Assembly (NCBI GenBank): GCA_002269645.1
Contig: NIVC01000620.1
Location: 186,001-250,000, forward strand
Reading direction: 5' to 3'
Source: Macrostomum lignano
Taxonomy: Eukaryota
DNA: 64,000 nucleotides
The position numbers and the translations under genes are program-made. The notes beneath the pieces are model-generated. The model was not told the DNA's origin. It saw only the letters and a program-made list of their open reading frames with translations, and made no database searches. Of the stretch, positions 1,959-57,875 are shown piece after piece (position 1 is the stretch's first letter; each line of letters opens with the position of its first letter).

Positions 1959-2591
1959 AGTAGTAGTATGTTATAAGGGGCTGCGCCACACTTATTGCTC
2001 GGGCGCATTGCGCGCCAGCTCGCTGGATGACTCAGCCCCTTATAACATACTACTACTACCAGGAGGTCAGAGTTGCAAGTGTGTGATATTTAAATATACA
2101 TATATCTGTGAGTGAGGGTGTTGAGGGTGAGGGCATGTGGGGGCATTGGCCTGTGGAATATTTCACAGAACACAGATTTTCCGGAATTTTTATACTTTTA
2201 AAAAAGGGGGGTCGCCCTCGCCCTCATGCCCTCACTCATTTTGAAAATCAGTAAAAATAAGTAAAAAAATGACTAAAAACAGGTGAAAATGGTCTGAAAA
2301 CAGCGATTTTTGTGATTTTCAAAAATTTTGAAAAAGTGCAATTTTCACGATTCCAGCTCTAAAACCATGAGAAAAGTTGGATTCACGGGTCAATTCAATG
2401 CAATTTCAGGTATATAGAATATGAAAGTGTCATCCAGTTTAACGATAGTAAATTATATATATATAAAATGGCCTTCAGTAAACCATTATTTCTAGGAAAT
2501 GCTTTAGATATTCAGTCAGCTATAACAAAACTACCACCCATCTTCTCCACTGGAAAATATCCTGGCGAATTTCATATTCCAGGGTATTCTT
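1959..2591 (+). repeat. Polinton left TIR (~633 bp), including a terminal 25-bp hairpin and the first 124 nt of the PLA2 gene
   Basis: Reverse complement of 23457-24084. The differences I found are three 1-bp indels, one substitution and the last few terminal bases. Confidence 0.97.
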
Positions 2592-2847
2592 TTGCAAGCC
2601 AACAGCTCTGACTCACAATGCTGATGATGTATCAGATCCCCGTAACGTGGCACATTTTTGTCTATTTTTAGAACTAGAAAAAAATGAATGAAGCAAACAC
2701 AAAAGACTCTCAGACACACAGAGTGGGTGGCTCCACTGGAGCACAAAGGCAGCCTTTATTTCAAAGAGTTGTTTTCATGGTATATACTAAGGTAAGTAGC
2801 GCGGAGTGAATGTTTGAATGATAATTGTCACTTTAAGTAGTAGCATG

Positions 2848-3448: not shown

Positions 3449-3901
3449 TTACCGAGTCCTGATAGTTGTTACTTCGTTTGTCACTCCTCTCATTTTTTCG
3501 ATAAGGCGTCCAATAAATCGGCTTTCTCTAATAGATTTAGAATCGCTCTCTTTGCTCTTCTCTTCCTTCTTATTCTTCTTGAAGGACTCACATTCAATCT
3601 TTCGCAGTTTTTCCAGTAATGAGTTCTGCTCCTCGTTAGACAAGCGACTAACTGCAACTGCTGAACTTGATTGGTCTTTTGAGCTAATACTCTTAATCGT
3701 GGAAACTATCTTAGATGGAAGCTTTCTATCGCTGGAAGAAGCCATTTGAAATATGTTGTATAGATAGAATTCTAAACCTAAAGTAAATTTTCTCTTGCTC
3801 TTGCTTGCTAAGCTAAATGAAACTAATATAGTGATGAAGAGAAAAGTCGCAGTCAGCCGATAACAGATTACAACTAGCAAAAGTGTGTGGGTGTGAGCCA
3901 C
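3449..3901 (-). CDS. Polinton hypothetical Ser/Lys-rich coiled-coil protein (likely start MASSSDRK near 3745)
   Basis: ORF track only; low-complexity sequence. Confidence 0.35.
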   Translation of the reverse strand: MAHTHTLLLVVICYRLTATFLFITILVSFSLASKSKRKFTLGLEFYLYNIFQMASSSDRKLPSKIVSTIKSISSKDQSSSAVAVSRLSNEEQNSLLEKLRKIECESFKKNKKEEKSKESDSKSIRESRFIGRLIEKMRGVTNEVTTIRTR

Positions 3902-4645: not shown

Positions 4646-7095
4646 ATGGAAATAAAAAATCAAAATGATTCAAGTTTCTTTCCTGTGATCGTACAGGATC
4701 CGCTTCAAAACCATGATGCCCCACCACCAAGATTGACAAATTTAAAACAAACAAAATCGTACGATAAACTAATTAATCTCTATAGAGAACTTAATTTTAG
4801 ATTCGGAAGTTGCAGTATAACATGGAATAGTAAAACAGAGAAAAAATACCGTCAGGAATGTCAACCAAAGCAGATAGGAATTCAACCTCCCCACTATTTC
4901 GACCAGAGGTAGACAACATGATTTGGATAGATACCCGAAATTCAAATATAACCGTAATCGATATTGATAATGCTGACCTATGCCCTGAGTTGAATGAACT
5001 GTGTATGGCTCATTGTGATTGGATTGTTCAGACAAACAAGGGTCATCACTTTTACTTTAACAAGGTAGATAGTTAAAAAGTAACGATTCAACAAAGTGTG
5101 GGTTTTGATATTCCAGCTTTAGTATTTGCTCCACCAGGTTTCTATTATGTGGATGGTGAAATTAAGAAATACAAACGTATAAAGCCCGAAGGGTTAATAG
5201 ACATGCCAGATGTAATTCTTGATGAGATAAATAGATTAATTAAGCCACAGGATAAAACAGAAAACCAAGAACCCGATAAACAAGCACTAAAAAGCACCGT
5301 TCCACCACCCACTTGTGAAGGAGTTTCAAAGTTGTTAAGTATAATACAACACAAAAACCAAGACTATGATTCTTGGTACAAGGTGGCACTTATACTCCGC
5401 GACATAGACAATGGTGATGAAATTTACAAAGTATTCACTGATTGGTCAAAAGTCAATTATGATAAGTTCGATTCCGAGTCATGTAAAAAGGTTTGGAATA
5501 GCACCAGTGCCAGCTCTGCTGATGCACAGGACAGACTTACTATCGGTACGTTGAAGAAATGGGCAAGTGAAGAAAACTATAACAAATATAAGGAATGGAA
5601 AAGCAAATATGATTACTATGGTAGGATTGAGTATCTTGATGATAATTTCACTGACGTTAACATAACCAACTTTGTTTATGAATATTAGAAAAATAAGATA
5701 ATTTACAATAGCGATGGTATTTACTATTTTGATGATGATAAGTGGAGAGAACTAAGTAGTATAAATGACATATTTCTTAAAATATCAGACCTTGTTAGCA
5801 GTGAGTTAAACCACCGAAAGACTAGACTCGAAATTGCAATTAAGAAGGCTGATGATAAAGAGAAGTTAAAAGCACTTGAAAAGAAACTAAAGAACACAAT
5901 GAAGAATATAAATTCAATACAAGGAGCCAACAAACTCAAACAGGTAACTACTTTGTTCAAAGAGAGGTTTACTAACAATGAAATTGAATTCGATATGAAA
6001 TGGAATTTGCTAGGGTTTAACGATGGAGTATATGATCTCGCTACAGGTGAGTTTCGCGAGTATAGATATGACGATTACGTTACTAAATCGGTGGGATATA
6101 ATTACTCGGATGTACTTGGAGTTAGTGATGACGACTATGGCTTCATTGTTAATCTGCATAACCAAATTCATCCCGATCCAGAAAACAGAAAGAGTTGGGA
6201 ATCCGTTATAGCCACAGCTCTAATGGGTAAGAATGTTGAAAACTTTATAATGTTTGATGGCGCCGGTGGAAATGGCAAGGGGGTTGAGGACAACCTACTT
6301 CTTAGAACTCTAGGATCTGATTATGCAGCACCACTGAGTCCTGATGTTTTGAATTCATCAATAAGAATAGACAGGCCACAACCAGCCCTAGCACAGATTA
6401 ATAAAAAGTGATTAGTAATCAGTCAAGAAGTAAGTGGTGTCTTGAACCATACATCAATAAAATTACTAACTGGTGGAGGAGTTATTCAAGCTAGAACTTT
6501 ATATTCAAGCCAGTGTAATGTTGTTTTACACGCAACCCTAATAGTCGAATGCAACAACAAGCCTGACTTCAGACAAAATATTGGAGATGCAGAAAAAAGA
6601 CGAATTATAAATATTAATTACCCATGCAAATATACAACAGATACCGACATCATTGATCATGAGAAACACATTTATAAAGCCGATTCATATCTTAAAACCG
6701 AGGAATTTAAGAATAAATATAAGTTTGCTGAAATAAAACACCTACTAGAAATTTTCAAGCAAACAAAGGGTGAAATATATCTATCTCAAAAACACTAATA
6801 AATTCATACAGAATAGCAATTGGTTTGCTCAGTTCTTTGAAGAGAATTATGAATTTTAAGAAACTGGGGAAAAAAATTTATGCTTATTAGAGAAATTTAC
6901 ACTGCCGCAACAGAGAGTGAATACTATAGGACTCTAGCCCAACGCGAGAAACGTGAATTCCAACAACAATACATAACAGATTTCTTCAAGAATCACAAAG
7001 ACTATTGTAAGTATTATAAGGATAGATATAGGCGTAGGATAGATGGTAAACAGCAAGAAACTAGAAATGTTCTGTTTTACTGTGTGAAAAAATAA
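4646..7095 (+). pseudogene. Bifunctional primase-polymerase (PrimPol) + PriCT-2 + D5-like SF3 helicase, fragmented
   Basis: NITVIDID and VQTNKGHHFYF (PrimPol); DYDSWYKVAL...WS...FD...W...LTIGTLKKWA (PriCT-2); WNLLGFNDGVYDL (D5_N); FDGAGGNGKG (Walker A); LTGGGVIQARTLY and ECNNKP (SF3). Spread over ORFs 4592-4912, 4858-5076, 5098-5688, 5899-6411, 6442-6798 and 6880-7095. Confidence 0.88.
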
Positions 7096-7193: not shown

Positions 7194-10100
7194 TCATAAT
7201 ATCACGAATATATATTTTTTTTCAGATACAGTCATGCTTACTCTACCTCTTTGAATATCTTTGTAATCTGTCAATAGTATGTTTTTAAATGTTTCAAACG
7301 TTATATTTGTACTGCTTTTATCAACTCCCTTGATCTTAACACACTCTCCTGAAACTGTAGTGAAAGCATACTCCTTTGACCGCAGGAATACAGCTTCGGA
7401 AATTATTGAGCCATTCATTTCATCTTTCAACTTTCCAATAACTTTCTTGTTCGTCTCGGAGTATAGTGGATGCTCTGTTGGATAATCCGATGTGTCTAAG
7501 TGTTCTTTAATTTTTTCAAGATCCTCATAAAAATCCTGAGTAATCACTGAGAATATCAGAGAATCACAATCAGAATAGTGCAACTGACAGCTGTTCCTAT
7601 TCTTCTCAATAACATTGTAATAGCAATCGTACATTAGAATTTTTGCATAATCCAGAATGGCCATTCCTAAATAAATTGGCTTGTCACACGCAATTGTCTT
7701 TTTGTACATTTGGATACCAACTGCATCCTCACTAAACATAATGAAATCTTTGAAATTTGGTTTGAGAAAATAACGCCTTGCAGTTTTTTCTTCAGCTACA
7801 AGATGAAAGTTCGACCTATTCTTTACATTTTCTATTGTTTTACCGTACAATGAGTTGTTTAGTAGTTTCCACAGGTCTTTCTCAAATTTAGTTTTTGCTT
7901 CCATTCTCCGCCTGGTATTAAATTCGATGTATTTACTCAACCAGTTTGACTCTTTGAATGAAAGAATTCTATGAACTCTCGTAACTCGCATGCCCATCGA
8001 CTCATAAAACTCAAGTAGTCTGTGATGTAAAACATATTTCTCCTTGTTGTAAAATGTCAACATCAACTTTGACTGGACAAACTTTTTCTTTTCGACTTCG
8101 AGGTATTGCTTCTGTATGTCAGATAAATCCTCAAATCTAGTTGTTCGTCTTTCAGGAGCCAGTGGATATTTACCTGTAGCTTTCTTACACTCCTCTGTAT
8201 ATTCAAGGTCAACTTCAAGAAAACAACCCCTGCCATTAGGAATATTCTTGTGATACTCTAGATCATTTTCAAACTTGAAATCTCCCACAGGAAGATTTTT
8301 CATCATTGCTTCACCATATAAATTATTCTTGTCCAAGTATAACATGTATGACGATTCAGAATTGCTGTCATAATTTTCTAAATACTTATTGTTCATTTTT
8401 TTATATCGATCTCCAAGAACTCCAGAGAAACCACCGCGAATACCACTTTCTACCATGGATATCATATCTTTATCACCAAGTAATTCCAGCTCAACATTGG
8501 TATATTTCAACCCACATGCCCACGATAATCCAGAAAGGGAAAAGCAATAAGCAGGATCTATCTTGAAATATTTCAAAAATGTTGATCGAAACTTCTCAAA
8601 AGCGTTAACAAATGAGTAAATCTTTCTAATTACTGCTGTTGTATCACTGGGTGGCAAATATTTTATTTCTTCTTCAGAGAGTGTAAATGGTGGTTCCAAA
8701 AACCTAGATCCATTGTGATAAATAGGCAATTAGATAATAGCATGCACGGTAAGCAATTTTTTAGGCCCTAGACAAACCTACTTGGAGCGTTCGAAGATTT
8801 TAAAGCTATTAATCCTAATCGCCTATCGCCGGTCGGCGAGTCCTACCAGTCTTTCTCCAATAGCCGCAGGTACAGTACAAGAAAAGAAAGAACACGAGGG
8901 AACACAAACCGAAAGATTTAGAGAGTGATAATCCTATATGATACAACTGATGATTGGCTAGACGATTTAATTTGATTACTCAAGTTACAGGATTCAAGCA
9001 ATTCGCGACGCAGATAATTAGACTGATGATAACGAATAATAACGATTAATAATAACGATTATATTACGCACTGACAAGCGGATCTCAGCTTGAAGAAGAA
9101 GAAGGAGAAGGCACCGAACACAGGACCACGGAGAAAGACTCCTAACCCCTGGCCTAAGCCAGAACCTACTCTCAAACGAGAGCCCTGCCGAACCGACCGT
9201 TCAACGGAGTACCGACTAAATTCTATCGGCACTGCCCTTCAGTGTAACACTGAGGCCCTCGGGGTCGAGGCCGCGTACTTATCAGATCCGACAGTCTCTA
9301 TCTAACCGCGCTTGATAGCGACGACTTCAGACAGGAATTTGCCGTAGACGTTACGCCACAAGACTACTGCGGTTGGGCGGGAACAAAAATATGGACCGGG
9401 GGTGATGAATTCAGGCGCCTCAAAGCGCGAACCAAAGGGAACAGCTAGGCCACCGGCCGGGAGACAAGACAAAACCGGGGAAGAGAGGAGAGAGAAGGAG
9501 AGAAGGAAAAAGTGAGATCCGATTGCCAAACACACATTCATTTATAGTCAGAGTCACAACCCCTCAAAACCCCCCTCAAGCCGGGTGGTGGTCGTCTGGC
9601 TGGCCGCTTGCTTAAGCCGAATTGCACTGTGCCCGCGGCGCCGGGTAGAATTGAAACTTGCCGCGTGCCAGGGTCCAGGCCGGTTCTGATTGGCTGGCCG
9701 CGCAAAGCTGGGGTTCGCAGACAAACTCAACCCTCCGCTGAGTCACAAATTTGGCGTCTAACTCTAACCTGTTTACACAAAATTGATTCCAACTAACAAG
9801 GAAAAAGTACACCAAAAACGCATGACTAAACTAAAGCAAAATAACAATTCAATAACAATATAGAAACTAATGCAGTCAATTTACAACAAAATACACGCAA
9901 AGATGCTCACACTACACCATCTAAAAACACAACGCCACTTGTATAATTCCCCCACTTAATTGCAACATGGTCTTCCGATGTTTTAGAAATGAAATCCAAT
10001 TTATATGCTGCATTCTTTATTCTTGTTAATGGAACTATCGAATAGTTTAGATCTTTTCCAGATTCATTCAGGAGAAACAACGGTACTGTTTGATTCGCCT

Positions 10101-11382
10101 TGCCCTCTTTGGTATTACATGATTGACATGCTGCGCCGCGATATTTACCATTGTAGTGATTATGCTCTCGAATTTTCTTACTATCTACAAATGGGCTTGT
10201 GCAGAGAAAACATTGTTCTGCCGCTTTGCAATCAGTCTCTTCGACATCACTTAAACTTGGATGTTTATATCTATCCATTTCATTTTTAATATGCTCAAAC
10301 TTTTTGATTACGGTTTCAACGAATGATTCCACTGTAGTATTTGAAATAATATCCGACTGTATAATGTCTTCATAATCAGAACTAGTAAAAAGTGTCCATT
10401 GTGATAGTTCTAGCGATTTATCATCCATAGTTACATAATCCAATATAGCATAAAACACAAATGGCTTTCTCACACTCATGTGGTAGTTTTTAAACTTTAA
10501 TATCATCTTATCAATCTTTGGAACTTCAATTGACACCTTGAAGTCGACGCAAAGTGCTTTATGATTATCCAGTGCATCTTGGGAGTATTTCACTTGAAGA
10601 CACTTTCGACAAAGAAAAGCCCTGTTATTGGACGTCAGGAATAAGTTCAGGTCTGTTATTAAACAATAATGATTTTTGACAAGTAGTAAATCAATAACAT
10701 CGGGGTTGTCATAATCTTCAGTAAGACGAATTGAATATATGGACTCTTTAGTTTTAGTATCTCTCAATCCAAACACATTTATATGGAGGCTGTTCAACTT
10801 TTCAATCTCAGAGATATCTCGAATGTCTACTGGAAACGCAACGTCTCCTAAGTTTATTTCATTTATATACTGTGTATACTTAATAACTCTATATCTATGT
10901 TCCTTCACAGGATGGAGCTTTGCTAAAATAGACCAGAGAAAGCACCTATTGTCTTTAGTATTCTTAACATTTACTAATGCGTTTGATTTAATTGGAATTG
11001 GAATATAAGTTCCTCCTTTCAACTGATTAATGCCAACAACTTTCAACACAATCTTTACTAACTTAACAAAATAATATCCCGATCCCCTTTCATTAAAGCT
11101 ATCCTTCTATTCATCAAATTCATCCAGAACATCCCCGATTGTACTTTCAATACTAGCTTCAACTTGAAGCAGATTTAACAAAGTTCGATGCTTTGAATGA
11201 TATTGGAACTCAATCCAACTGTCGGTAGTTCCTTTATAAAATTCTGCGACAAAGGAAATTCTGTATTTTATTGAATCTCTAGCCATCAAAAATTCGGAAA
11301 GAATTGGAGAGATTAAACCGCGAATTTCTTCAACGGAGTCGAGTTCAAATTCATAAGAGGCCGCTGGTATTTTCCTTTCCAT
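7194..11382 (-). pseudogene. polB: Protein-primed family B DNA polymerase (TP-like N-terminus, vOTU-like protease, EndoVII/HNH-like insert, degenerate exonuclease, polymerase), split by a solo LTR
   Basis: YLDKNNLYGEAM (motif A), KLLNNSLYGKT (B), YSDCDS (C), KIKG. NTKDNRCFLWSI...NHY (vOTU-like Cys/His). CFLC...REHNHYNGKYRGAACQSCN (EndoVII-like). Removing 8714-9920 restores FLDGSRFLEPPF. One in-frame TAG at 11107-11109. Confidence 0.93.
8714..9916 (-). mobile_element. Solo LTR (1203 bp, probably Gypsy) inserted in PolB
   Basis: TG...CA ends and 4-bp TSD CCAT (8710-8713, 9917-9920). Excision restores the PolB frame. A minus-strand TATAAA (~9541-9546) and CCAAT (~9689-9693) suggest the orientation. 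Confidence 0.88.
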
Positions 11383-11407
11383 TTTTAAGAAAAAAAATTA
11401 TACAATA

Positions 11408-12150: not shown

Positions 12151-13530
12151 TTATGTGGCAATTATGTCTAAAATCGGATAAAGTTGAAAGCCTGAAACTA
12201 TAAGAACAGTTGATCCTTCAGTGGCTGAATTAATATGCACTCTATAAACGGAGAATTTTTCGGTGGAAGCTACTTCGAAATACTTCATCACTCCAGGAAC
12301 TAAACCAGCGTTTTCGGTAGAAAAAAATATTCTTTAAGTCTCTCTTGTTATTGCTTCCTTTCAGAATAAAACGTTTTGGTTGATTTTTTATAATTTCACT
12401 ACCTACTGCTTTGGTTCCTTTCAATCCGAATTTCCAAATTTGAATAGACTCGGGAAGTTGTACTTCAATGTAAGAATTGGAATCATTCCTCGATGCCCAT
12501 TCTGAATTAGATACTATATAACCCCAATTATCTGACGTTGCAAATGCTCCAGATGACGCTACATTGAAACCCCTTTCTCTCTAGTTTTGGTATGTTGCTA
12601 GTGAGGGAATATATCCTGTATAAGATTTGAAACCTAGTCCCCGCCTTAGTCGCAGCTCCACTGATTCAAGTACATTGTCTACGTATAGCTTTGGTACAGC
12701 TTGAAGTCTATCTATAGGCCACACTAAATCATTAACCACTGTTTCTCTCTCAAGTAATTCAATTTTTGTAAGCTTTACAGAACCAGAAAAATTTAGAGAA
12801 TAATGGAAATAATATGAGGGATTGGGTATTTGTTTCCTAAGATGTGCATTGCTCCTTCGTAGTTCAATGGGTGCACTTTGTTCAACAGGTGTCCAGTTTG
12901 TTCCATTTAGGCTCACACTAACAGACCAACCAGGCCACACCTCTCCTTCCAACTTTATCTCTACAACTTTCCTAGCTCTTTTCAAAAATTGAAATCGTAT
13001 CCACTTGTCTGAGTCATCTGCACTGCTCCATTCTGAAGCTGGGTTTGAATCTGCAACATGATATGCTGCTGAAGAGTTATGAGAAGCGGTCAATTTCATG
13101 TCAGGATGGGAAGTGTTTGAAGTCAGTAATGAAAGAATATTGACTAATTTCGAAGTCTCTGTACCCCCACAGTACCTTGCCTTTCTGCTAATAAAGTGTC
13201 AATTTCAGTTTTAGAATACATCTTAGTGTCAATTTCGGTTCTAGAATACATCTTAGTGTCAATCTCAGTTTTTGTGTAGACATTGTTTACGCGCCCATGA
13301 GCATCGTCAATTAATTGTAGCATGGTGATATTCATTGCGTCACTATCTTCCTTTGAATAACAGTCTGAAACATTTCTCTTTGCTAACAATAAACTATCTA
13401 TTTCCTCTCTCTTATATCCTTCACTTTCATTGATGTAGCGATCATCAGCTAACGCTATTGTTATTCCAGGCGCTATATCATTTGAATTTGACGAGTAACC
13501 AAATTGATTGGCAGTATTCTTGTAACTCAT
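12151..13530 (-). pseudogene. Fibre/receptor-binding-like protein: Y(T/S)KxEID repeats + discoidin (F5/8 type C-like) domain + C-terminal domain; frameshifted
   Basis: YTKTEIDTKMYSRTEIDTKMYSKTEID repeats, then LTSNTSHPDMKLTAS...D.NPASEWSS...WIRFQF...SLNGTNWTPV. The last fragment ends at TAA 12151-12153. Confidence 0.65.
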
Positions 13531-13967
13531 TTTAATTGCTGCAAAATTTCATTAAAGCTATCTCCTTTATCGATTCGGTGTAAAAAGTACAGCGACATTT
13601 GACCACAATATTTCTTATCAAAAGTTTGAATTTGTTCTTCCATGTCTCCACATATTCTATTCTTTGTGTGATTAAACTTTTCCATAATTTCCAGTGTGGG
13701 GGGTAGTGCATAGGAATCAAAATAATAAACCTTATCAGGAGCTGAAAAGATAGCTGAATGATGTATACCCCGTTCTTTCGAAGTGTGAATATTTGTCATA
13801 AAGTAACCATACTGTGGTAAACCAACAATTTCATCTCTCATGGCATAACGAAATGGTTTTAACTTGAGATATTTTGCCCAATTTATCAGATCAATATTAG
13901 TCGTAGTGTCAGTCCCAAACTTTTGTTTAAATGCGTTCCATGTGTCAGCTTTGCTCATTTTTAACAC
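13527..13967 (-). CDS. Adenain-like (C5) cysteine maturation protease (ATG probably 13958)
   Basis: N...RGIHHS, YYFDSY, QIQ and YCG give His/Asp/Gln/Cys in adenain order. Confidence 0.85.
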   Translation of the reverse strand: MLKMSKADTWNAFKQKFGTDTTTNIDLINWAKYLKLKPFRYAMRDEIVGLPQYGYFMTNIHTSKERGIHHSAIFSAPDKVYYFDSYALPPTLEIMEKFNHTKNRICGDMEEQIQTFDKKYCGQMSLYFLHRIDKGDSFNEILQQLK

Positions 13968-14152
13968 TCATATTTGTCGTACGTGTAGATTTATAAATAT
14001 TTCCTCGCCAAGAAATATTGGGATCGTTTTATGAGAACCAGATAATATCTGCAAGCTAAGCTTGGTCAGCTAATGTTAGTTTAATTTTAGACTTTTAGTG
14101 ACTCTAAGGGATCTTGTGGTTTTTTTCTTGGTTCACAAAATTTAACATAAAG

Positions 14153-14482
14153 TCAAAGTGAAATTAAAATAAAAAATAAAAGTTGTGGAATTATTAGTAA
14201 TGTACTTGATATTACTATTAATGATATTGCAATTTTTATATTTGATTCATCATTATTTGATATTCCTATGATATTCAATTTTTTAGATAAAAATAAGGCG
14301 GGAAAAATAATCATCATAAGTAAGATTAGTAAAATAATAGGAATTATAATATTTTGATAGCTGTTCGTTTCACTTGGTTGGTTATCATCCGTTACTTTAC
14401 GCTCTTTGTCTTTATCAAATAAAAGGGGCGCTGCTGCTATAGGATGGGTGCTGTCACAGGTGTTGGCACAATCTGTTGCCAT
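14153..14482 (-). CDS. Small two-transmembrane protein in the inserted cassette
   Basis: Two long hydrophobic runs (IIIPIILLILLMMIIFPALF; IAISLIVISSTLLIIPQLLFFILISL) and a TATAAAATG start. The frame continues ~23 codons past the TGA. Confidence 0.55.
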   Translation of the reverse strand: MATDCANTCDSTHPIAAAPLLFDKDKERKVTDDNQPSETNSYQNIIIPIILLILLMMIIFPALFLSKKLNIIGISNNDESNIKIAISLIVISSTLLIIPQLLFFILISL

Positions 14483-14483
14483 T

Positions 14484-14744
14484 TTATAGTTTATTTTTTA
14501 AATAAACCTTATCAGGAGCTGAAAAGATAGCTGAATGATGCATACCCCGTTCTTTCGAAGTGTGAATATTTGTCATAAAGTAACCATACTGTGGTAAATC
14601 AACAATTTCATCTCTCATGGCATAACGAAATGGTTTTAACTTGAGATATTTTGCCCAGTTTATCAGATCAATATTAGTCGTAGTGTCAGTCCCAAACTTT
14701 TGTTTAAATGCATTCCATGTCTCAGCTTCGCTCATTTTTAACAC
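14484..14744 (-). pseudogene. Truncated second copy of the protease
   Basis: Near-identical to the N-terminal ~80 aa of 13527-13967 and lacks the Asp/Gln/Cys half. Confidence 0.9.
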
Positions 14745-15539
14745 TCATATTTGTCGTACGTGTAGATTTATAAATATTTCCTCGCCATCAAAGTCGTATA
14801 GAACACCAGACTCATCTTCGATGACAAAATCGAATGTGCTCAACATGTTTGTAGTTAGTGGTAGGTACACAGGATTTGCAGGCTCTTGAATAATTTTACT
14901 TCCCATTGGGACGGAGAACGATGGAATTGAGAGAAGTATTTGCTTATCAATTAAATGATTTCGATTCGCTGGATCAGTGATAAAACCCCCCTTGATATTT
15001 AGACAACGAACCATGATTGCACTTCTAGCTCCGTCTATCCGAGCTGGATTTGGAGCTCTCTCAAATGGTTTCAAATACACTTCCGAATCGAATCCCAACA
15101 GTCTTCTAAAATTATTGGAATGTGCATCCCTGAAATCAACTTGATAATTTGTGGCTAACCGTAACTCAGCTCTACGCGTGTCTAGGCTTGCACTAAAAAC
15201 AATAGCCCCCTCTTTCCAATCATTTGCAGCTGTTAGCAATCTTTGAATCTCGCTTGGCAGACTTTTAACTTCCTATGAACCTGCTTGAATCTTTATTTTT
15301 CTCCATGTTCTACCACTATCCCTCGAGTATCGCAACTCATTATTGCCTCCTTCAATATTGTTAATGGCATCAAATACTGCAAACTTTTTTATACCAGCTT
15401 CGTATTCTCGATCTTCATAAAGATTTATAGGAGTGCCTAGAGTTTGTCGAAATGAGTTTTTAATTGAAAAGAAGTCAAATGTGCGTTGAAACTTTTTACT
15501 CAAGAGGATGTTGACTTTTTCTATTTCTTTTTTCCATTT
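14745..15539 (-). pseudogene. Minor capsid protein (penton)
   Basis: AINNIEGGNNELRY, NNFRRLLGF, VRCLNI, SVPMGSKIIQEPANPVYLP, FDFVIEDESG. One in-frame TAG at 15273-15275 and a homopolymer frameshift near the ATG. Confidence 0.8.
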
Positions 15540-16273: not shown

Positions 16274-17045
16274 TTACAATGGGATTTTAGTTAGAACATC
16301 CTTATACAAATCTTGCTCATCCTCATCAGCTCTTGTATTTATATAGATATAGCCATACTTCTTTTTCCAAGCCTTTCTACATTTAGCCTTGAATATAGCG
16401 GGTTCATAATTCGTTTCTATATTTCTAGCAATGTGATTCAAGTTTGTATCTTTTTGTTTAAAGATTATGTAGCATGTCGTATTCTCCCTGACAGTATTGC
16501 GATCTAGTTTGGTAAAATTTTGAGCTAGATAAAAACCACAACAGTTTCCATGCCTGCCTCTCTGAAACAGACTTTCCTGAAATGTTTGATTAGCCTCTCC
16601 CAAAACATCGTCCAATATCACATGTCTTTAGTCCATTATGAAAAATTTCTTCATTTGGAGTATGAGAAAGAGTGACAGGAATTTTTTTGATTTCTTCATT
16701 TTTTTCTGATGTGCTTTGCACTCGACCAAGGTCGGCTGCCTCTCGACAAATATGTCTAATATCTTCAGGAGATGCATCCTCACTCACCTGGTAGACATGA
16801 TAGAGTGAGTTGATAAGAGAAGGTGGGAGACCATTTTCAAAGCCATGCTTTAGAAACTGATACTCTGGATCCATTTGAGATGCTCTGGGAACATATAAAA
16901 CTAACTCATTAAAGTCCACTAGTTTTTCAGGACTTGTAAGAATATGGAATAGTAAATATGTTTTACCCGTATTTGTAGCGCCGATAAAACAACATAAAAG
17001 AGGATTAGGGAAAATAGGATCATGCTGAAATTTTACTTTGGGCAT
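16274..17045 (-). pseudogene. A32/FtsK-like DNA packaging ATPase, frameshifted
   Basis: GATNTGKT (Walker A), ILDD (Walker B), RGRH, AQN and FKQ motifs across ORFs 16590-17045 and 16274-16621. Confidence 0.92.
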
Positions 17046-17066: not shown

Positions 17067-18434
17067 TTATTCGACGCGGCCCATTTGAGGGTGAGGCCCA
17101 CTGATAACTTGGATTACATTATTTGTTTGTTCAAGAATTAGTGCAAAAGCTGTCAGCTCAACATTGGTTGACTTCTTGATAAATAATTGAATATTCACTC
17201 CAATCTTGACAAGAAACTCATCCTGAGCTGTTAGATCAAAGCAGAATATTGGATAGATGGTTAGATAGTCTTGTTTATTGAATGGTGGAGTTACACCGAA
17301 ATGGCTGCAGATGCCCTCGTACATTTCACACGCTTTATGAATGTCTTGAGCTACTGGATCAATATCAACATAATCAGTTGGATACATCACTTGATTTAAT
17401 CTGACTTGAAGCTGGGTTATTTTTACTGCATTTGCTCCAGTCTTGTAAGACACATACTTGTGATCATTAACTATATATGATGGGTTGTTTACGTCATATT
17501 TGAAGGCTACAAAGATTGCAAGTGGCATATTGGAGATGCTGGTTTTGTTCCATGTATATGGGCTTCCTTGAATGAGTTGTGGCGGAATCGTTACCCTCTC
17601 TGGAAATGATACTATAATGCTCTTGTTGAGTGATTCTAGAAAAGCTGCTTCAGCACTGGGTGACAAAGTAATAGCAGGGATCCAAATCTCAAAGCTATTA
17701 ATAGTTAACTTAGCTTCGGTCCCGGCAGCTCCAAAGAAAATTTCAGCATCGTTAGTCTTTCTTGTCCATGTAAATTTGTATTTAATTCCTTTGCTAATTT
17801 TCTGCCAATCAAGGAACCCAATGAGGGGTGTTAATGATAGTTTGATTGTTCCACCTCTGTTTGGAGCATTAGTGACATTATTATAATTTTCAAGCCTCCT
17901 AATGTATCCAGTATTCGAATCCTTCTTATTAAGTCTATTTTTCATAGCGATTGCTGCAGTTCTCACAGCTTCAGCATCTGCGTTGTTTGCTAGAGGTATA
18001 TCAGAAACAGTCCCAGCATCCCCAGTGTCTGGAATCCAACCGTATGCTTCTCCGACTTCATTCATCAATTTTGAGTACATTACGGATTTTAAGATTGTGT
18101 CATACTCTCCAGGTTCATTATAGACTTCCTTTGATCCTCCTATGTCCACAATAAGTTGAGAAAACAGACGCATAGGCCAATTATGTTCTAGAGTAATGTT
18201 CGTATTCAAGTCTGTGTTATCTCGCTGTGTTATCGAGTATCTTATAAAACCGAATGCCTCTGACATGAGAATGTATGCCTCTGTTGAATTGACTTCATGA
18301 ACTATTTGACCTCCAGCAACATTGACATTATTACTGCTACCTGCTGTTGGCGAAATCTTAATATAATCTTTCTTTTTGAAAAAGCTAAAAGTTTTGTCCT
18401 CATATAGGTTCAGTATATCCTTTTTGTTTTCCAT
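17067..18434 (-). CDS. Double jelly-roll major capsid protein, 455 aa, intact
   Basis: Size, position next to the ATPase, beta-rich pattern and C-terminal YPIFCFDLTAQ resemble Polinton MCPs. Confidence 0.8.
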   Translation of the reverse strand: MENKKDILNLYEDKTFSFFKKKDYIKISPTAGSSNNVNVAGGQIVHEVNSTEAYILMSEAFGFIRYSITQRDNTDLNTNITLEHNWPMRLFSQLIVDIGGSKEVYNEPGEYDTILKSVMYSKLMNEVGEAYGWIPDTGDAGTVSDIPLANNADAEAVRTAAIAMKNRLNKKDSNTGYIRRLENYNNVTNAPNRGGTIKLSLTPLIGFLDWQKISKGIKYKFTWTRKTNDAEIFFGAAGTEAKLTINSFEIWIPAITLSPSAEAAFLESLNKSIIVSFPERVTIPPQLIQGSPYTWNKTSISNMPLAIFVAFKYDVNNPSYIVNDHKYVSYKTGANAVKITQLQVRLNQVMYPTDYVDIDPVAQDIHKACEMYEGICSHFGVTPPFNKQDYLTIYPIFCFDLTAQDEFLVKIGVNIQLFIKKSTNVELTAFALILEQTNNVIQVISGPHPQMGRVE

Positions 18435-18820: not shown

Positions 18821-21752
18821 CTAGCAGAACCCCCCGCTTAAAGTGTCCCATCCACGGAAAATTCCAATCTATTGCATAACTCCCCCATTAAATTTTCCCA
18901 TCCGTGAAAAATTCCAATCTATGGGATGCAAATCCTCGGAATCCTAGTCTTACAGTATGTGAGCCAACATAATTTTAATTGATATTATTAAAATTCGATA
19001 ACAAATCGCAATAGACAATGCAACGGAAATACTTAAAATAATACTGAAATGCTGTGTAGTGTGACTTTCACATCTTGTACTTATTTGCAAAAAAATCGAT
19101 GCGATGGCACAAATCGAATTTACGCGCTGAGTTTATTGATGGAGTTTATTGACTTTGAGGACAGCTCAGCAAGAATCAAATTTTACAATAAAAATGACTC
19201 ACATTCTACGGAGTTGAAAAGCTCTACTTTTCTCTACTACTCTTCTCTGAAAAGCTCTGCAATTTTTAACATATCATCTGTAAATTCAGTAAGTCCATGA
19301 AATAAATGATATATACTTCTATTACAGTCCTTGACGTCAGTGCGATTTATCGGCGGCTGCTTCACACCGCTTCATTCAGTATCGATGGTTTCATTAGCTG
19401 ACTCTGCAGGCAAATCCTTGGACATACAGGAGGCGTCAGGGTTGTCTGCCTCACACCGATCTGGTCCCAGCCGAGGTTCCTTCCGTCGTGGCGTCAGTTC
19501 CTCCGATTCGTCCAGTCTCTCTCCAAGGATTGATTCCAGATGGTCCCGCTCTGCCCGAACGATGTCCAAATCGTACCTGAGTATGGCGATCTCGTCGTCC
19601 CTCGCCTTCTGCCCTTCTTCCAATTCTGCGATGCGCTTTCTCAGATCGGCTATTGTTGAACCCTGTTCTCCTACAATATCGGAGAACACTTCCGCCGCCA
19701 CGCAGGTGTAGAATCACGTCCCGCATTGTCACAGGGCCCTCACCATCATCAGCAGTCTCAGTGCCAGTCAAGACAGCAACCTCACTGACAGCAGGAAGGT
19801 TAAAGCGTCTGTAAATGCAGAAAAATAATAGTTATAATAATATTAGTCATACAAATAGGAATAGTTTGGAATAATTAAAACCATGTATGTTCACAACATC
19901 TCAAAATCATTTACCTTAAGTGTTCCCCAGCTGGCTTTCGGTCCGCGCGAATCACAAGAGACGAATGCTTCAGCTGAGGGTCCTCAGTCAGTCTCTCAAT
20001 CGCAGCTTTGAAACTGCGCACATAAGAATTGTGTCGGTGCAGCAAGTTCTGAAGCAATTCTATCAGCTGGCGGTCAATGCCCTGGACCATGGCCATCCTT
20101 GTCTCCAATTCGGAGTCACAAAAAAAAGATCTGACAAAACTTTGCTGCACAATTTCCTTCAGGGAGCAAACTTCCCATTCGGTGGTGAAACTCTCCATGA
20201 ACAATCACGTTAATACATCCACCAGGTAGTAGTCTCTCATTCACTCCCAATGAACACATGTGAAGCAGAGCATTGATCTTTCTTACGTTGTTCAGGAAGT
20301 TGGCGCTTTTGTCGCGCTCACCCAGGTAAAGTCTCTTGAGCTCGTCCGGGATTTGTGGCGGCGTCAATTTCACCTTTTCGCCCTTACAGCACATTCCAGG
20401 TGGTTCATATTGCCAGAGCAGGGCGCTGCATTTCTTGCATTGTAACGCCATTCGCCCCGCAAAATGTGGCTTCATAGCAGTCGCAGTCAGCTGCCAACTC
20501 TGGCGCAGGGCATCTCGGGCACGTGCTGCACTCAGTCGGGCAGCACTGTCCGTCTCAGTCTCGACATTATTGTAAACACGGGTGGAGATCTCAGAGAGGT
20601 CGGGTAGCTCCGCCTGTGCACTGCTCATAGAACGAGCACCGCTATCAGACCCCACTGTAGCATCTAAAAAAACATCCACTGATGACGCGCAGCGACTCGT
20701 AATGCTGGCTACTGCGGTGGTACAGCAGCAGAACGGTGGCCACAGACGGCAGCGTCGCTGCTGGTGAGCTCTGCACGCAGGTCAGCCTGTCGTCTTGGGA
20801 CTCGTCAAGCTGATAAATAGCGAAATCCACGTTCAGGATTTTGCCAAGCAAAGGCGCGACAAAATCATGAACGTAGACCCCATCAGTCAAGGTGTCCCGT
20901 ACCACCTGCTCGATGGTCAGCCGCTCGACCTGCAGCAGGGCAGCCTGCTCCTGGAGCAGAGGCGGGAGTCTGTCTGCCATTGTTCGCCTGACCATGGCGT
21001 GGTCCATGGCCAGCGGCGTTCCGCGCAACTGATCCGCAACGGCGTGAAAGTAGCAGTTGCCGTCCCCACTGACAGGAGTAACCTGGGTGCAGGTTACACT
21101 GAGCGCGCGACCCGTGACTGACCTGCAGTTAACAACGTTTAATACTTTAAATCCAACGTTTAATCCATGTTTAGATTAAGGGGCGAAGGCAGATTTATTT
21201 CAAAACACGATAAATCTCAATGTTCATGAGTTCATTGGTTGCTAGGGTCTTCGAATTGGTTGCTAGGGTCTTCGAATTGGTTGCTAAGGTCCTCGAATTG
21301 GTTGCTAGGGTCTTCGAATTGGTTGCTAGGGTCCTCGAATTGGTTGCTAGGATCCTCGAATTGGTTGCTAGGATCCTCGAATTGGTTGCTAGGGTCCTCG
21401 AATTGGTTGCTAGGGTCCTCGAATTGGTTGCTAGGGTCCTCGAATTGGTTGCTAGGGTATTTTTGATTTTGGTTGCTACGGTCTCGTGCTTTGGTTGCTG
21501 GGGTCTCGTTTTTTGTTGCTTTTAACTGCAACTTGCTTTTATGACTGCAACAAGAATGCACTAAGGAGATAGGAAAAATACAGTTTTTCCCACATTGCCA
21601 AGCTCCCTGTCAACATTAAGGCGATTTGAAACATGCCACATTGTCCCAGAAAGATGTGCCATCGAATGGTACAGGTCCCACGGACGGCGGACCAGCCGTT
21701 CGCCCGGAAACGTGACGCGCACAGACAGACAAACTCAACTTTAGGTATATGA
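18821..21752 (-). mobile_element. Non-autonomous, internally deleted Helitron (2932 bp)
   Basis: Inserted between A and T; 5' TCATATACCTAAAGTTGAGTTTGTCTG, 3' CTAG. Carries OTU-like (HYESLR), Zn-finger (CKKC...CC.GEKVKL) and Rep N-terminal pieces homologous to 39265-47529. No HUH or helicase region. Confidence 0.9.
21234..21460. repeat. 21-bp minisatellite (gtcctcgaattggttgctagg)n inside the Helitron
   Basis: About 11 near-perfect units. Confidence 0.95.
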
Positions 21753-21847: not shown

Positions 21848-22270
21848 TCAGAATTTCTTCAAACCATTGCCTTGTCTCAAAGACACTTGAGACTGTTCTG
21901 CTGTTCCTAGAGCCTTTTTAACAATATCTTGAATGGCCTTGTTTGATTGCGAAGCTATCTGTTGCTCTTCTTCCATTCTTTTCTTTGCTTCTTTTTCTCG
22001 GCGTTTCTTTTTAATATATTCCAGTTCCTCGCCTGCTTTAGACATGTCACTGTATGATTTCTTCGCATCAAATATGTTTTTCGCTGTGGTAGCTGTTTTA
22101 CCTATTGCATCGGCTCCACTCACAATTTTACTTCCATGATTTGATAAAAAGTTTGTGACACCACTGATCATATCACCAATTCCTTCACCCTCTTTATCAG
22201 CTAGTAGTTGTGAATCAGACGTTTCAATCTGACCTTTCGCCCGTTTGCAGTTTGTTCGATAGGCGCTCAT
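21848..22270 (-). CDS. Basic/coiled-coil virion core-like protein with GEGI and GNGL motifs
   Basis: Start TAAAAATG at 22270. The GxG-hydrophobic motifs are shared with other core ORFs of the element. Confidence 0.6.
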   Translation of the reverse strand: MSAYRTNCKRAKGQIETSDSQLLADKEGEGIGDMISGVTNFLSNHGSKIVSGADAIGKTATTAKNIFDAKKSYSDMSKAGEELEYIKKKRREKEAKKRMEEEQQIASQSNKAIQDIVKKALGTAEQSQVSLRQGNGLKKF

Positions 22271-23038
22271 TTTTAGTTGGAAAATTTGCTGGTAAAAGCT
22301 GGGATTTGTAAAATGATCCAATTTCTTCTCCATTCTCATCCTCAATAATGTAAGTTATGGGATTTGAGTAAACTATTTTCTTTATCCTAAACACTTCTGA
22401 AATTTTCCAATAACCTCTTCGGCCCTTTTCAAAGTGCTCCTTGTATCTATAGATATGAACTTTGTCACCTACTTTGAAGTTTGGTTTCTCATTTGAATAC
22501 TCGAAGGAAGGCTTTGGTACTCGCTCAGGATGTTTAGATGCTTCTGAAGGAGTTATCAGAATCTCAGAATGGATTGTGTTGTTGTATTTTTCAACAATAG
22601 TTGGCAATATGTGGAGCCACTTCTGGTTTCCTTGTAGATCAAATTCAAACCAGAGTTTATTTGTGAGAGTACGATTGAACCTCTCAATCATTGCATTCTT
22701 AGACTCACCATAAATTGAGAACATCTTGTTAATATACTCCCCATTTTCATCTTTCTTTCTTATGTCGTCTTTTGAAAACGAGTATAGCTTGTGTACATAT
22801 GCTGATTATAAAACTCCTTGCCTTCATCTACACAAAGTCTCTCTGATCGTCTTCCTGATTCCTTAAATACTTTTTGGAAAGCTTCTGCAACTTCCGCTCC
22901 CGTCTTTGTTTTCAAAGGTACTGCCCAAGCGTAACGTGTAAAACCATCTATGATAGTGAGTGCATATTTGTAACCTCTTTCAGGAGGAAGGATAATGATA
23001 TCTGCATGCCAAATTGTGTCTTTTGCATAGTGAATCAT
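22224..23038 (-). pseudogene. Polinton retroviral-type (rve, DDE) integrase, frameshifted
   Basis: IWHAD, TIIDGFTRYAWAVPLK, VDEGKEFYN, IERFNRTL, YNNTIHS, FKVGDKV and NPITYIIED...GSFY. Confidence 0.93.
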
Positions 23039-23580
23039 TTTCTAAATACTCTTGGCTTTCGATATTCTTTATGCAATTTCAAAGCATCTTCATAGCTAAG
23101 ACCATTGCCGTATATGGTTAGACAGTCTATACAATTGTTGGGGGTGTGAGTATGAATGCCTAATCCAAACCGAACTTTAGCTTTAATAACACGCTTTACT
23201 AGATTTCTAATCAGTCTCTCTTTCACAGACAAGTCTCTGGTTGGAATAGCATCTAAATCAGCAATCATTTTTTCATCAGCAATATGCTTCTTTGCTAGGG
23301 CTTCCTCTGGAGTTGAAGACGTCTTTTCAGCATCTCTATAGCTTTTGTCATAATAGTAAGCAGTCCAATCGATTGGGTTAATTGGTAGACTATCATACCG
23401 AGGCCTGTCTGTAATTGGATTGAGTCTTTTGTCTAAATTTGTACCTGGGCCAGTACAAGAATACCCTGGAATATGAAATTCGCCAGGATATTTTCCAGTG
23501 GAGAAGATGGGTGGTAGTTTTGTTATAGCTGACTGAATATCTAAAGCATTTCCTAGAAATAATGGTTTACTGAAGGCCAT
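23035..23580 (-). CDS. Parvovirus-VP1-like phospholipase A2 domain, probably the N-terminus of a PLA2-integrase fusion
   Basis: HIPGYSCTGPGTNLDKRL...PINPIDWTAYYYDKSY (the catalytic HD reads YD). The ORF end LHKEYRKPRVFRK matches the usual N-terminal lead-in of Polinton integrases. Confidence 0.85.
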   Translation of the reverse strand: MAFSKPLFLGNALDIQSAITKLPPIFSTGKYPGEFHIPGYSCTGPGTNLDKRLNPITDRPRYDSLPINPIDWTAYYYDKSYRDAEKTSSTPEEALAKKHIADEKMIADLDAIPTRDLSVKERLIRNLVKRVIKAKVRFGLGIHTHTPNNCIDCLTIYGNGLSYEDALKLHKEYRKPRVFRK

Positions 23581-24084
23581 TTTATATATATATAATTTAC
23601 TATCGTTAAACTGGATGACACTTTCATATTCTATATACCTGAAATTGCATTGAATTGACCCGTGAATCCAACTTTTCTCATGGTTTTAGAGCTGGAATCG
23701 TGAAAATTGCACTTTTTCAAAATTTTTGAAAATCACAAAAAATCGCTGTTTTCAGACCATTTTCACCTGTTTTTAGTCATTTTTTACTTATTTTTACTGA
23801 TTTTCAAAATGAGTGAGGGCATGAGGGCGAGGGCACCCCCCTTTTTTAAAAGTATAAAAATTCCGGAAAATCTGTGTTCTGTGAAATATTCCACAGGCCA
23901 ATGCCCCCACATGCCCTCACCCTCAACACCCTCACTCACAGATATATGTATATTTAAATATCACACACTTGCAACTCTGACCTCCTGGTAGTAGTAGTAT
24001 GTTATAAGGGGCTGAGTCATCCAGCGAGCTGGCGCGCAATGCGCCCGAGCAATAAGTGTGGCGCAGCCCCTTATGACATACTAC
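23457..24084 (-). repeat. Polinton right TIR (~628 bp)
   Basis: Inverted copy of 1959-2591. It ends catactac and runs into (gagactac)-type octamers instead of tact. Confidence 0.97.
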
Positions 24085-24156
24085 GAGACTACGAGACTAC
24101 GAGGCTACGAGACTAGCGCTGTCTGGGATTTTGATGAGGATTACCGCAAGCTCATG

Positions 24157-55700: not shown

Positions 55701-57553
55701 TTGGTTTTAATTTCGAGGCAGTTACAGGTAGCTCGTCTTCGTTTCTGTAAGGAGTTTCTTAAGTCTAAGACTCGTACGTCCAGTTAAAAGTGTACTGCGC
55801 CGTACGTTCACAATGCGAATTAAAGCTGATGAAGGCTTCATTTGTGCTTTTTACGAGCGCTCGTAGTAGTAGGGTTCTAATTTCCTGCACTAGAGGGCCA
55901 AAATTGCAGGCTATTCATGCACAACTTAATTGTACTTAGAGAATGCTCTGTAGGATAGAAAAGCTGAAATATCAGGCCAAACCTTACAAATACTGCTGTA
56001 GAGGCTGCGTCAGAACATTTTGTGGGCCGTTTTGATGCAGTTGGTGCAGATATGATGCTAGAGATGCAAATTGATAACTGAAAAGCATAAGAATAGCGGG
56101 TCATAGCTGGGTTGCAGACAGTCTAAGTAGTATGCTAGTAGAAGGACGGTTTTTTATTGTTCTAACTAAATATGAACAATTAATGGCTAAAAGTGAAATT
56201 TTATTGATTTTTCTATCCAGAAGACACAAACAAAGTTTTTTTGACTGATCAAACTTACTGACACTTGGTTTTTACCAGGGCAAAAAAACAAAAGCACCAA
56301 AAAATTACAACTCATCGTTTTTCTCATTTGTTCTTTGTAATAAATTAAACCTCGTATGCTTTGATCCTTCAATTAAAACAATACACTCGGAAAAGCATCG
56401 CAATGCCGCCGATAGTCTAGCAATGAAAGTGATAGCGATAGATAACAATAGGCGATGGTTTGTCCTGATAGAAACGATTCGTTGTCTTTAGTGATCACCA
56501 TTATCCCCCTCTTAAAGCAGCCTTCTCAGACACAGCCTCCACCTGTAGCAACGCACTTCTCCCGTCGCGTGAAACGCATCAAAACAGCATGTCTGGGAAG
56601 ACAATAGGGGAGACTGCGCCGGAATTTCTCTCCCAAATGATCTCTGCACCAACTCACCTCAAACGATCAAGGAAGTTACGTAAGCAGAAGATCCAGTATG
56701 AGTGAATTAACTCACAACAGTGGTTCAGAAACCACTGGGCCTGAAAATCAACGCTTTTTAAATTCGCTGACACTTTTACAAAATTTTGTGACGAATACCG
56801 ATTAACAATGCCAGGTTAAAACGCAAATGGGTTGAAAGTTAACGATATTTGCTTAATGTGATTATGGAAACTTCCAGCGATCGTGGTGGTAGCACCTGAA
56901 TCCCAAGCGGACTCAGATTGATGCAAAACGAGTTAGAATCTAACTTCTAATGAGCTAATTAATCAATGTATATACAGTCACACTGAACTATGCAACTAAA
57001 TAGTTCTATCGATCTATCGAGTCTAATGCAGGGAGTTCAATAGGCAACGACTACTCGCTCTGAGCTCCGCACAACGCCCGCTTGGAAGAAACCCGATTCA
57101 AATTGTATTTTATATGAACGCAACCCTTACTTAATAAAACAAATATCAGTCAAGTTACTGCGCTACTTACAAACTTTTCTTCAGCAACGCAAGATGTTAA
57201 ATTACTCGTACATATTTTAATAGATGGCGCAAGCAATTACAGAAATCGAATAAGTGACTAACCCCAAAATAGGATAACGACAGAAGTGACATCGTCACAA
57301 TTTAAATAACAACAAAGTTGTTCCATTTCAACCGTGATAAAGATGGAAACATGGAAAAATGACAGCTCTTGTCTGCGAATAGTACAGATTAAAATTATCT
57401 AATGGAAAAATCGAACGTCTAATCAATCGATTATGATAGCATACATATTAGTTCTGACATCACAGAGTTCTGATGAGAAGCACATGATAGGGTAAAAAAA
57501 CTTTCTACGATTAAAAAGCTAAAGACTTTTTTACTTTAACAGCTAAAACAAAC

Positions 57554-57772
57554 GGGATGTCAACTTAAGCACCAGAATGGAGCCCGAAGTTCAGCTTCGA
57601 AGTTGACATGAGATCCCCAGTTTATCCCCTTTATCCCCTGGGACCCCAAGGAACGGACCCGGATGGGATGTCTCGGCGATTCTTGTCGTCTGGGCCGACG
57701 AGTTATCGATTGCAGTCGGTTCGGTCCGGAGCTGAACTTCGGGCCCCATTCCGGCGCTTAAGTTGACATCCC
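57554..57772. mobile_element. MITE-like element with ~46-bp imperfect TIRs
   Basis: gggatgtcaacttaagcaccagaatggagcccgaagttcagct ... agctgaacttcgggccccattccggcgcttaagttgacatccc. No clear TSD. Confidence 0.75.
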
Positions 57773-57875
57773 CTTTAACTCAAATTTTCTTTATTGTTGA
57801 TTGTTTAACTAAATAAAGACTACTGAAAATCGATATCAAGTCGGTATGATTGTGCTACACCAAAACAGTCGGAGT

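Follow-up and report, generated by a model that had tools for sequence, protein, structure and literature searches.

A decayed Polinton and its left terminus

The window, by which we mean the entire 64,000-nt stretch of DNA that was analysed, harbours at 1959-24084 a decayed, multi-copy Polinton, and the assignment of the hairpin site to a Polinton terminus in the initial annotation holds. The genes and terminal features of the element are as follows.

1959..2600, plus strand: left terminal inverted repeat, about 640 bp, reaching into the start of the PLA2-integrase gene
1959..1983, plus strand: outer arm of the left hairpin, the first 25 bp of the element, beginning with the (AGT)3 end motif
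1984..2032, no strand: mismatched interior of the rod, with the apex GCGCA-T-TGCGC at 2003-2013
2033..2057, minus strand: inner arm, a perfect inverted copy of the terminal 25 bp
5077..6798, plus strand: D5-like primase-helicase gene (PriCT_2 E 3e-12, D5_N E 7.7e-14), interrupted by stops
7194..11397, minus strand: protein-primed family B polymerase, disrupted by a stop and by an inserted segment of about 1.2 kb
10087..10224, minus strand: EndoVII-like polymerase insert (PF02945, E 3.6e-7)
16274..17045, minus strand: packaging ATPase in two pieces (Pox_A32 E 0.0012, under the cut-off, for the C-terminal piece)
17067..18434, minus strand: double jelly-roll capsid protein (PF21738, E 1.5e-10)
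22224..23580, minus strand: PLA2-domain/rve integrase gene, broken, in three frames (rve, PF00665, E 1.7e-11; Phospholip_A2_4, E 1.2e-6)
23448..24084, minus strand: right terminal inverted repeat, partner of the left repeat
23990..24084, minus strand: right terminal hairpin, loop oriented as at the left, with one mismatch and without its last 4 nt
24085..24115, plus strand: about four 8-nt repeats, with CTAC in common with the broken element end

The two terminal repeats are 99.4% identical over 630 columns (1 mismatch, 3 gaps). Their length falls within the 100-1500 bp of Polinton terminal repeats and they bear the AGT or AG end motifs, with (AGT)3 at the left; the element further possesses the Polinton rve integrase and a protein-primed family B polymerase (pPolB) with terminal-protein and vOTU domains, both broken. 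A Walker A motif is present in the N-terminal piece of the packaging ATPase, and the closest match of the capsid protein, 92% identical, is named for Macrostomum lignano, which makes a flatworm the probable host. An ORF at 13527-13958 was recognized by eye as protease-like and has no Pfam match; the start of this gene is repeated in a direct duplication spanning 13527-14792 (777-nt spacing, 97% over 292 nt). The PLA2-integrase gene begins within the terminal repeat, so that its first part is found at both ends of the element; its PLA2 domain is of the parvovirus type and is fused to the integrase N-terminus in 10 of 18 relatives of the clade.

At about 8700-9900, a GC-richer segment of about 1.2 kb that starts with TG, ends with CA, and is flanked by a short duplication splits the polymerase gene; it is probably a solo LTR. 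A second insertion probably occupies 19911-21175, a GC-rich stretch with a weak OTU match whose ORFs presumably resemble Helitron proteins; it is followed by a 21-nt tandem array at 21192-21506. Outside the element, the window contains a piggyBac-type transposase ORF at 26276-27697 (PF13843, E 7.6e-61) and MITE-like inverted repeats at 57550-57776 and 61145-61682.

At the right end, 23990-24084, the same structure is present as first described, with one mismatch in the outer arm and that arm 4 nt short; the loop orientation is identical left and right, bearing out the observation that there is no flip-flop between the ends. This right end is not the native one: about four 8-nt repeats adjoin it, and a 6-bp target-site duplication is absent, the CAGGCC at the left having no match at the right junction. 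The repeats at 24085-24115 probably represent a deletion junction into host DNA that arose in a later event. The duplication is missing because the right end is broken, and its absence reduces the intactness of this copy more than its membership among the Polintons.

Copies of the family were checked in the contigs (Logan) of four public sequencing runs. Unrelated sequence precedes position 1959 in 6, 7, and 6 contigs of three runs (agreement 0.44-0.49), and a contig from organism B tracks the flank of the window up to 1958 and diverges thereafter. Summed contig depth over the hairpin exceeds that over the flank by a factor in the tens (21,099 versus 336 in run X1); it is not a copy number. 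The departure of contigs at 1958/1959 and the depth of the hairpin together establish that 1959 is the true end of the element and that the hairpin is a family feature rather than an accident of this copy. No flipped loop was seen in the four runs and 0 of the 5 joints listed change strand, in contigs, which drop rare forms. The substitution 2045 A>T occurs in 6, 15, and 6 contigs, and its partner position 1971 is not among the 40 of 184 rows listed. In run X5 (organism B), over 2041-2300 of the window, a contig aligns inward from the final 17 nt of the inner arm, and 266 unlike bases precede the aligned part; this contig may derive from a sister family whose hairpin interior differs.

A predicted rod without branches

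The repeat at the heart of the initial annotation is exact: the 25 bp at 1959-1983 recur as a perfect inverted copy at 2033-2057. The 99-nt hairpin strand folds with a z-score of -8.75, equalled by 0 of 200 shuffles, and a 20-nt arm pattern has 4 occurrences in the 64,000-nt window versus 0 in 100 shuffles. The description of the hairpin as branched was not sustained. The two mini-stems noted in the 49-nt loop are present as letters but are disfavoured by folding, and two such mini-stems arise in 3.1% of 20,000 loop shuffles. The branched fold reaches -27.5 kcal/mol versus -32.5 kcal/mol for the best fold, and is thus 5 kcal/mol worse than an unbranched rod centred on 2008; the pair probability of the GCGC stem is 0.29 on the plus strand and about 0.12 on the minus strand, and that of the CCAG stem is 0.05 and about 0.01, respectively. 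Folded alone, the loop is no better structured than its shuffles (z 0.03). When the loop is read as an in-register, mismatched continuation of the stem about the axis at 2008, 13 of 24 positions pair, which is matched by 0.35% of 100,000 loop shuffles.

The terminal structure predicted in the window is an unbranched, mismatched rod. A minor branched form may exist alongside it, because the folding energy model may omit bonuses for special DNA tetraloops. The proposed likeness to the branched ITRs of parvoviruses is lost with the branches, the best fold in the window being unbranched and the relatives described below folding as rods. Across 1700-2900, Rfam returned no family at threshold; the single match was at chance level and lay outside the hairpin.

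Recurrence and strand bias in distant Polintons

Relatives were fetched with alignments of 32 polymerases and 17 integrases from viral, metagenome, and genome collections, and together with further contig stretches they make up a set of 235 loci (2.2 Mb, overlaps and duplicates included); the window polymerase has 1580 homologues. Each AGTAGT on the two strands was scored by how well its first 20 nt were matched in inverted orientation, taking the best match. Matches of at least 16 of 20 were found for 2 of 326, 2 of 224, 3 of 154, and 0 of 98 AGTAGT starts (7 of 802 overall), six duplicate loci having been excluded from the 326-start batch, and all 7 belong to three hairpins. As most of the scanned AGTAGT words are internal, the scan serves as a chance control and not as a frequency among termini. 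Seen from the palindromes, 3 of 70 distinct perfect-arm hairpins of at least 17 bp open at AGTAGT (one with a single extra outer pair), a word that has a frequency of 1.8e-4 per base. The three hairpins are as follows.

L175, 3459-3590: 132-nt hairpin, after the polymerase and integrase genes
L275, 5614-5742: 129-nt hairpin, 150 nt ahead of an intact 1248-aa polymerase
L307, 7327-7612: 286-nt hairpin, upstream of a 1350-aa polymerase, with a GC step as in L275

On the outer side of the L275 hairpin there is no ORF of 150 aa and the GC content is higher. One end of each of these elements is visible, and their status as termini is judged by motif, position, and composition. Perfect bases of 19, 19, and 29 bp, respectively, give way to an imperfect rod, and all three fold as rods; the perfect bases have only AGTAGT in common with the window. 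The polymerases of the hairpin bearers are 21-46% identical and are scattered on a 131-sequence tree. Absence of the palindrome from sister families, named in the initial annotation as a refuting result, was not observed: the hairpin recurs in distant Polintons with a different sequence. The same tip design written in different letters in distant elements suggests that the copied single strand folds its own end. We regard it as an even proposition that the hairpin is a functional end structure in a subset of AGTAGT-ended Polintons and would act on the 3'-terminal single strand.

The structure is not essential across the group, because L137 starts with an AGT repeat and lacks a hairpin (best match 14 of 20); its distribution is patchy, if the start of the L137 contig is a true end. 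An AATGCG word near the apex of three hairpins is compatible with chance by a rough estimate. Beyond the L175 hairpin, at 3591-3689, fragments of 5-9 nt from the terminal arm, in either orientation, make up 88 of 99 nt (mean of 15 and maximum of 47 in shuffles), and this tail may reflect slippage synthesis at an uncapped end or an assembly artefact.

Other palindromes were considered and set aside as termini. A 184-nt imperfect palindrome at L136 4657-4840, running from TGAT to ATCA 144 nt ahead of an intact polymerase, starts with TGAT and has viral genes on both sides; it is possibly the junction of a circular or tandem form, and its mismatches are 3:0 in the predicted direction if it is read as a left end. 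The palindrome at L173 1430-1541 starts with ACACAC and the polymerase start is missing, that of L208 is devoid of the end motif, that of L265 is an insertion within the integrase, and those of L297/L310 are intergenic; palindromes of L133 and L227 were likewise considered and not counted. L262 contains the first 15 nt of the window, as a direct repeat with no hairpin. Long inverted repeats flanking polymerases in G007 and G006 resemble host transposons or rearranged copies. The repeats of G003, G010:C2, G011, G013, L139, and L236 reached no recognisable end motif, and therefore no count of hairpin-free ends is given. A generic AGTAGTAG-gap-CTACTACT scan returned 121 loci with arms of at most 13 bp, as expected by chance. 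Scans of viral contigs with the window integrase, a 17-nt terminal pattern, a capsid alignment, and the L307 polymerase yielded no relatives, and the phage collection gave no match. We also observed a 63-nt hairpin at L305 6605-6667 and G010:C2 21744-21806, inside a Polinton-flanking inverted repeat and not at its tip. G006, a bacterial bin of 12 Mb, contains 177 polymerase matches on many contigs (e.g. C212, C328, C288), many of the matches being in three pieces, and several GTDB bins carry eukaryotic Polinton contigs as contamination.

The mismatches within the rods are unevenly distributed between the two strands. In 4 of 4 elements, the strand with the terminal 3' end folds better (-35.2, -42.2, -45.1, and -107.1 versus -32.5, -33.3, -40.5, and -102.2 kcal/mol), for which the sign alone gives p = 1/16. 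Mismatches were counted with a wobble-blind aligner and pooled over the four hairpins. On the 3'-end strand, G·T outnumbers A·C by 14 to 0, A·G outnumbers C·T by 14 to 3, G·G outnumbers C·C by 7 to 2, and T·T outnumbers A·A by 11 to 4. The ratio of G-containing to C-containing mismatches, which are not independent inside one hairpin, is 35:5, or 23:2 under a strict filter for well-aligned positions, and holds under 5 scoring schemes. In DNA, the mismatches that contain G are the more stable. The adjacent inner 250 nt show no comparable G excess (38/63, 38/27, 42/34, and 40/37). The window's own share of the bias is weak (G·T 2:0, G:C 6:3), and some non-terminal palindromes are skewed too (L208 7:0, L265 6:2, L227 15:9), most of the 17 controls being balanced. 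Decay of C to T by cytosine deamination in single strands could explain the G·T excess, but not that of G·A or G·G.

We also queried the priming machinery. Among 52 aligned N-terminal rows, S occupies the GSG serine position in 45, and the Cys and the His of the vOTU domain each occur in 51; the window polymerase retains all three residues. The predicted structure of the L275 polymerase N-terminus (mean pLDDT 84.5) is a beta-alpha-beta-beta-alpha-beta domain with the GSG serine in the loop between the helix 196-216 and the last strand, 222-235; the terminal-protein linking residue is placed at the corresponding loop in the accessible part of bioRxiv 10.1101/2024.03.18.585575. This model matches the polymerases of adintoviruses and MELD viruses in BFVD (best E 1.4e-30) and has no match at E <= 0.001 in the PDB.

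The statement that the polymerase contains an EndoVII-like insert proved correct, the Endonuclease_7 match being above the cut-off. A special link between EndoVII and hairpins did not emerge: the motif is present in 52 of 71 full-length relatives, including the hairpin-free L137, and absent from the hairpin-bearing L307, whose polymerase has a weak HNH match (E 0.0016) at another place. All three complete polymerases of hairpin-bearing elements thus have a nuclease-type insert, EndoVII in the window and L275 and the weak HNH in L307. The accessible parts of two preprints read such polymerase inserts as mobile homing nucleases (bioRxiv 10.1101/2024.03.18.585575) and report HNH and VSR inserts (bioRxiv 10.1101/2023.08.22.554363). 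A PDB search with the EndoVII piece returned only Hpy99I (E 0.3). At 10087-10224, the window insert reads EHNH...AACQSCN..EG, partly so in the two nearest relatives, and that of most other relatives reads DHxH...AAHxxCN.

The proposed folded 3' end and its known counterparts

To our knowledge, the replication of Polintons and their exit from the chromosome have never been observed. In the working model, as redrawn in the accessible part of bioRxiv 10.64898/2026.07.28.741278, the two distant terminal repeats anneal; a conserved fold-back at each tip would be an alternative to repeat annealing, testable on 100-nt oligonucleotides. We propose a cycle, every step of which we infer from sequence. 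A single strand would be released through strand displacement during synthesis, through excision, or as the 3' overhang that the primase-helicase leaves, and its 3' terminal 19-29 nt would pair with the inner copy, rebuilding a short local duplex origin without a 20-kb panhandle. The folded 3' end would be hidden from nucleases, and the inner copy could be the template for restoring lost terminal bases. The terminal protein would prime on the (AGT)n repeat by slide-back and the polymerase would open the stem; the loop would never be inverted, so that no flip-flop would arise. In the accessible parts of both sources, jumping-back priming is expected for (AGT)2//(ACT)2 end motifs (PMC8097293), and fold-back repair of a protein-capped end is shown in Streptomyces (PMC5449611). 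We assign a probability of about 0.5 to this reading, in which snap-back of the 3' end of the displaced strand would furnish a local duplex origin and a repair template for protein priming. A role alongside protein priming is favoured because the terminal-protein motif and the slide-back repeat are kept, no flip-flop was seen, and the mismatch bias is confined to one strand.

Self-priming, which the initial annotation had raised, survives as an unlikely alternative, as the features just named favour protein priming. Under self-priming, the folded 3' end would itself be the primer, in a rolling-hairpin or poxvirus-like manner, and a nuclease, such as the EndoVII or HNH insert, would open the closed end, perhaps with the D5 primase-helicase. 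The fold leaves a paired 3'-OH facing a template that continues inward, a D5-like primase-helicase is encoded in the element, the complete hairpin-bearing polymerases all have a nuclease-type insert, and a bias on the 3' strand would suit a primer too. In its accessible part, bioRxiv 10.64898/2026.07.28.741278 ties terminal palindromes to non-pPolB replication genes and proposes the same model. Resolution of the AAV type, however, yields both flip and flop ends (PMC11575299, accessible part), and none were seen between the two ends or among the 5 joints listed. A lasting inversion would also erase the strand bias. The left end of MVM is resolved by a route that gives one orientation, and such a route would escape the flip-flop objection. 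Further against self-priming, a Pfam scan of the 32 ORFs found no Rep/NS1-type nickase, the terminal-protein serine and slide-back repeat are kept, and EndoVII is found in relatives regardless of hairpins.

The remaining readings fit less well. The hairpin could be a functionless by-product, whereby a past fold-back (template switch) duplicated the end, the two repeats copied it mutually, and fold-back repair keeps the base of the stem perfect as the interior decays. This is quite unlikely: although the interior pairs in register as a decayed palindrome, the hairpins have a patchy distribution on the polymerase tree, and the L175 tail of pieces from its own terminal arm indicates ends prone to such events, neutral decay would hardly give large palindromes in at least four lineages with G·A, G·G, and G·T on one strand, and the window hairpin is common to many copies in three studies. 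Accidental annealing is offered as an alternative in the accessible part of bioRxiv 10.64898/2026.07.28.741278. Very doubtful is a role in duplex DNA, in which the head-to-head end copies would form a paired site, or a cruciform, for an integrase or origin-binding protein in excision or integration. At 19-29 bp, the perfect part is roughly as long as a protein-binding site, and the end motif is preserved in the inner copy. A duplex site, on the other hand, predicts neither mismatches biased to one strand nor pairing that extends over the full rod (about 120 bp in L307); the two copies are spaced 99 to 286 nt apart, depending on the element, and among the loose ends listed none marks integration at the inner copy. 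Finally, a hairpin of the 3'-end strand sequence in transcripts reaching the element end (a terminator or double-stranded RNA) is highly improbable, for although G·U, G·A, and U·U mismatches stabilise RNA as well and the L175 integrase is transcribed toward its hairpin, the gene closest to the hairpin points away from it in the window, L275, and L307, the start of an RNA hairpin would not have to coincide with the terminal base, and 1700-2900 contains no Rfam family at threshold.

Returning to snap-back with protein priming, we advance a broader version tentatively and with the odds against it: a widespread animal- and protist-associated class of Polintons may possess structured 3' telomeres, the conserved imperfect rod being the real substrate for terminal-protein priming and end repair. 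Given the D5 primase-helicase, copying might then proceed from inside, the terminal protein only patching the ends as in Streptomyces. Such telomeres, if real, would be intermediate between protein-primed and hairpin-ended DNA viruses. The hairpin in the window is a real, conserved end structure, and its strand-bias signature makes the mechanism testable: the bias separates folding of the 3' strand only from parvovirus-like flipping and is applicable to thousands of mapped termini.

Comparisons with published systems refer to the accessible parts of the cited texts. The nearest precedent is the endogenous virophages/PLVs of Halocafeteria seosinensis, for which terminal palindromes adjoining the target duplication have been described and hairpin priming proposed (bioRxiv 10.64898/2026.07.28.741278). 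As there, the palindrome described here sits at the outermost part of the terminal repeat and directly abuts the host junction, in an element with an rve integrase. The Halocafeteria palindromes are short (52 nt shown), whereas the rods here are imperfect and 99-286 nt long; they occur mostly in non-pPolB elements, whereas the present elements are pPolB Polintons with (AGT)n ends, a kept terminal-protein motif, and a one-strand mismatch bias. The window element encodes pPolB as well as a D5-like primase-helicase; its three relatives are represented by partial contigs. The Halocafeteria search was limited to gaps of 10 nt or less and to 4 mismatches or fewer, and that gap limit would miss the 49-nt mismatched interior in the window. 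The 2026 preprint already combines terminal palindromes with a proposal of self-priming; an imperfect rod with a strand bias was not found for pPolB Polintons in the texts consulted. The rods described here extend terminal palindromes from protist virophages/PLVs to pPolB Polintons, where standard palindrome settings miss them.

The window element shares with described Polinton/Maverick termini (PMC8097293) the end motif, long terminal inverted repeats, pPolB, rve integrase, capsid, and ATPase, and differs in that the end motif recurs inverted, 99 nt inside. The accessible text of that paper contains neither 'hairpin' nor 'palindrom', and the examined part of its supplementary file gives motifs and coordinates rather than repeat sequences; 'agtagt' is absent from the 4.0 million characters examined of the PMC8502044 supplementary file, and 'hairpin' is used for other things in PMC11296320, PMC6431247, and PMC6723459. 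Neither the strand bias nor an imperfect rod at the ends of pPolB Polintons is described in the accessible parts of vertebrate, nematode, coral, and adintovirus papers, in a search that covered mainly literature outside subscription.

Parvovirus/AAV ITRs likewise comprise a palindrome of about 100-130 nt at the terminus, with a 3' end that could act as a primer (PMC11575299). The AAV structure is T-shaped, flips and flops, and needs the Rep nickase, whereas the window has an unbranched rod in one orientation and, among the 32 ORFs scanned, no Pfam family of HUH Rep/NS1 nickases. Streptomyces telomeres (PMC5449611) offer a closer parallel, with a protein-primed end, a 3' strand that folds, a terminal sequence that pairs with an inner copy, and fold-back that restores bases. 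The two differ in that Streptomyces has several packed palindromes with GNA loops and the window a single rod, and they have no sequence or proteins in common; repair in Streptomyces uses a small terminal palindrome and not the long-range 'rabbit-ears' pairing. By analogy, the proposed end would resemble the Streptomyces 'rabbit-ears' telomere, or a miniature adenovirus panhandle, and not an AAV ITR, and we take Streptomyces telomeres as its closest working analogy, not as a relative.
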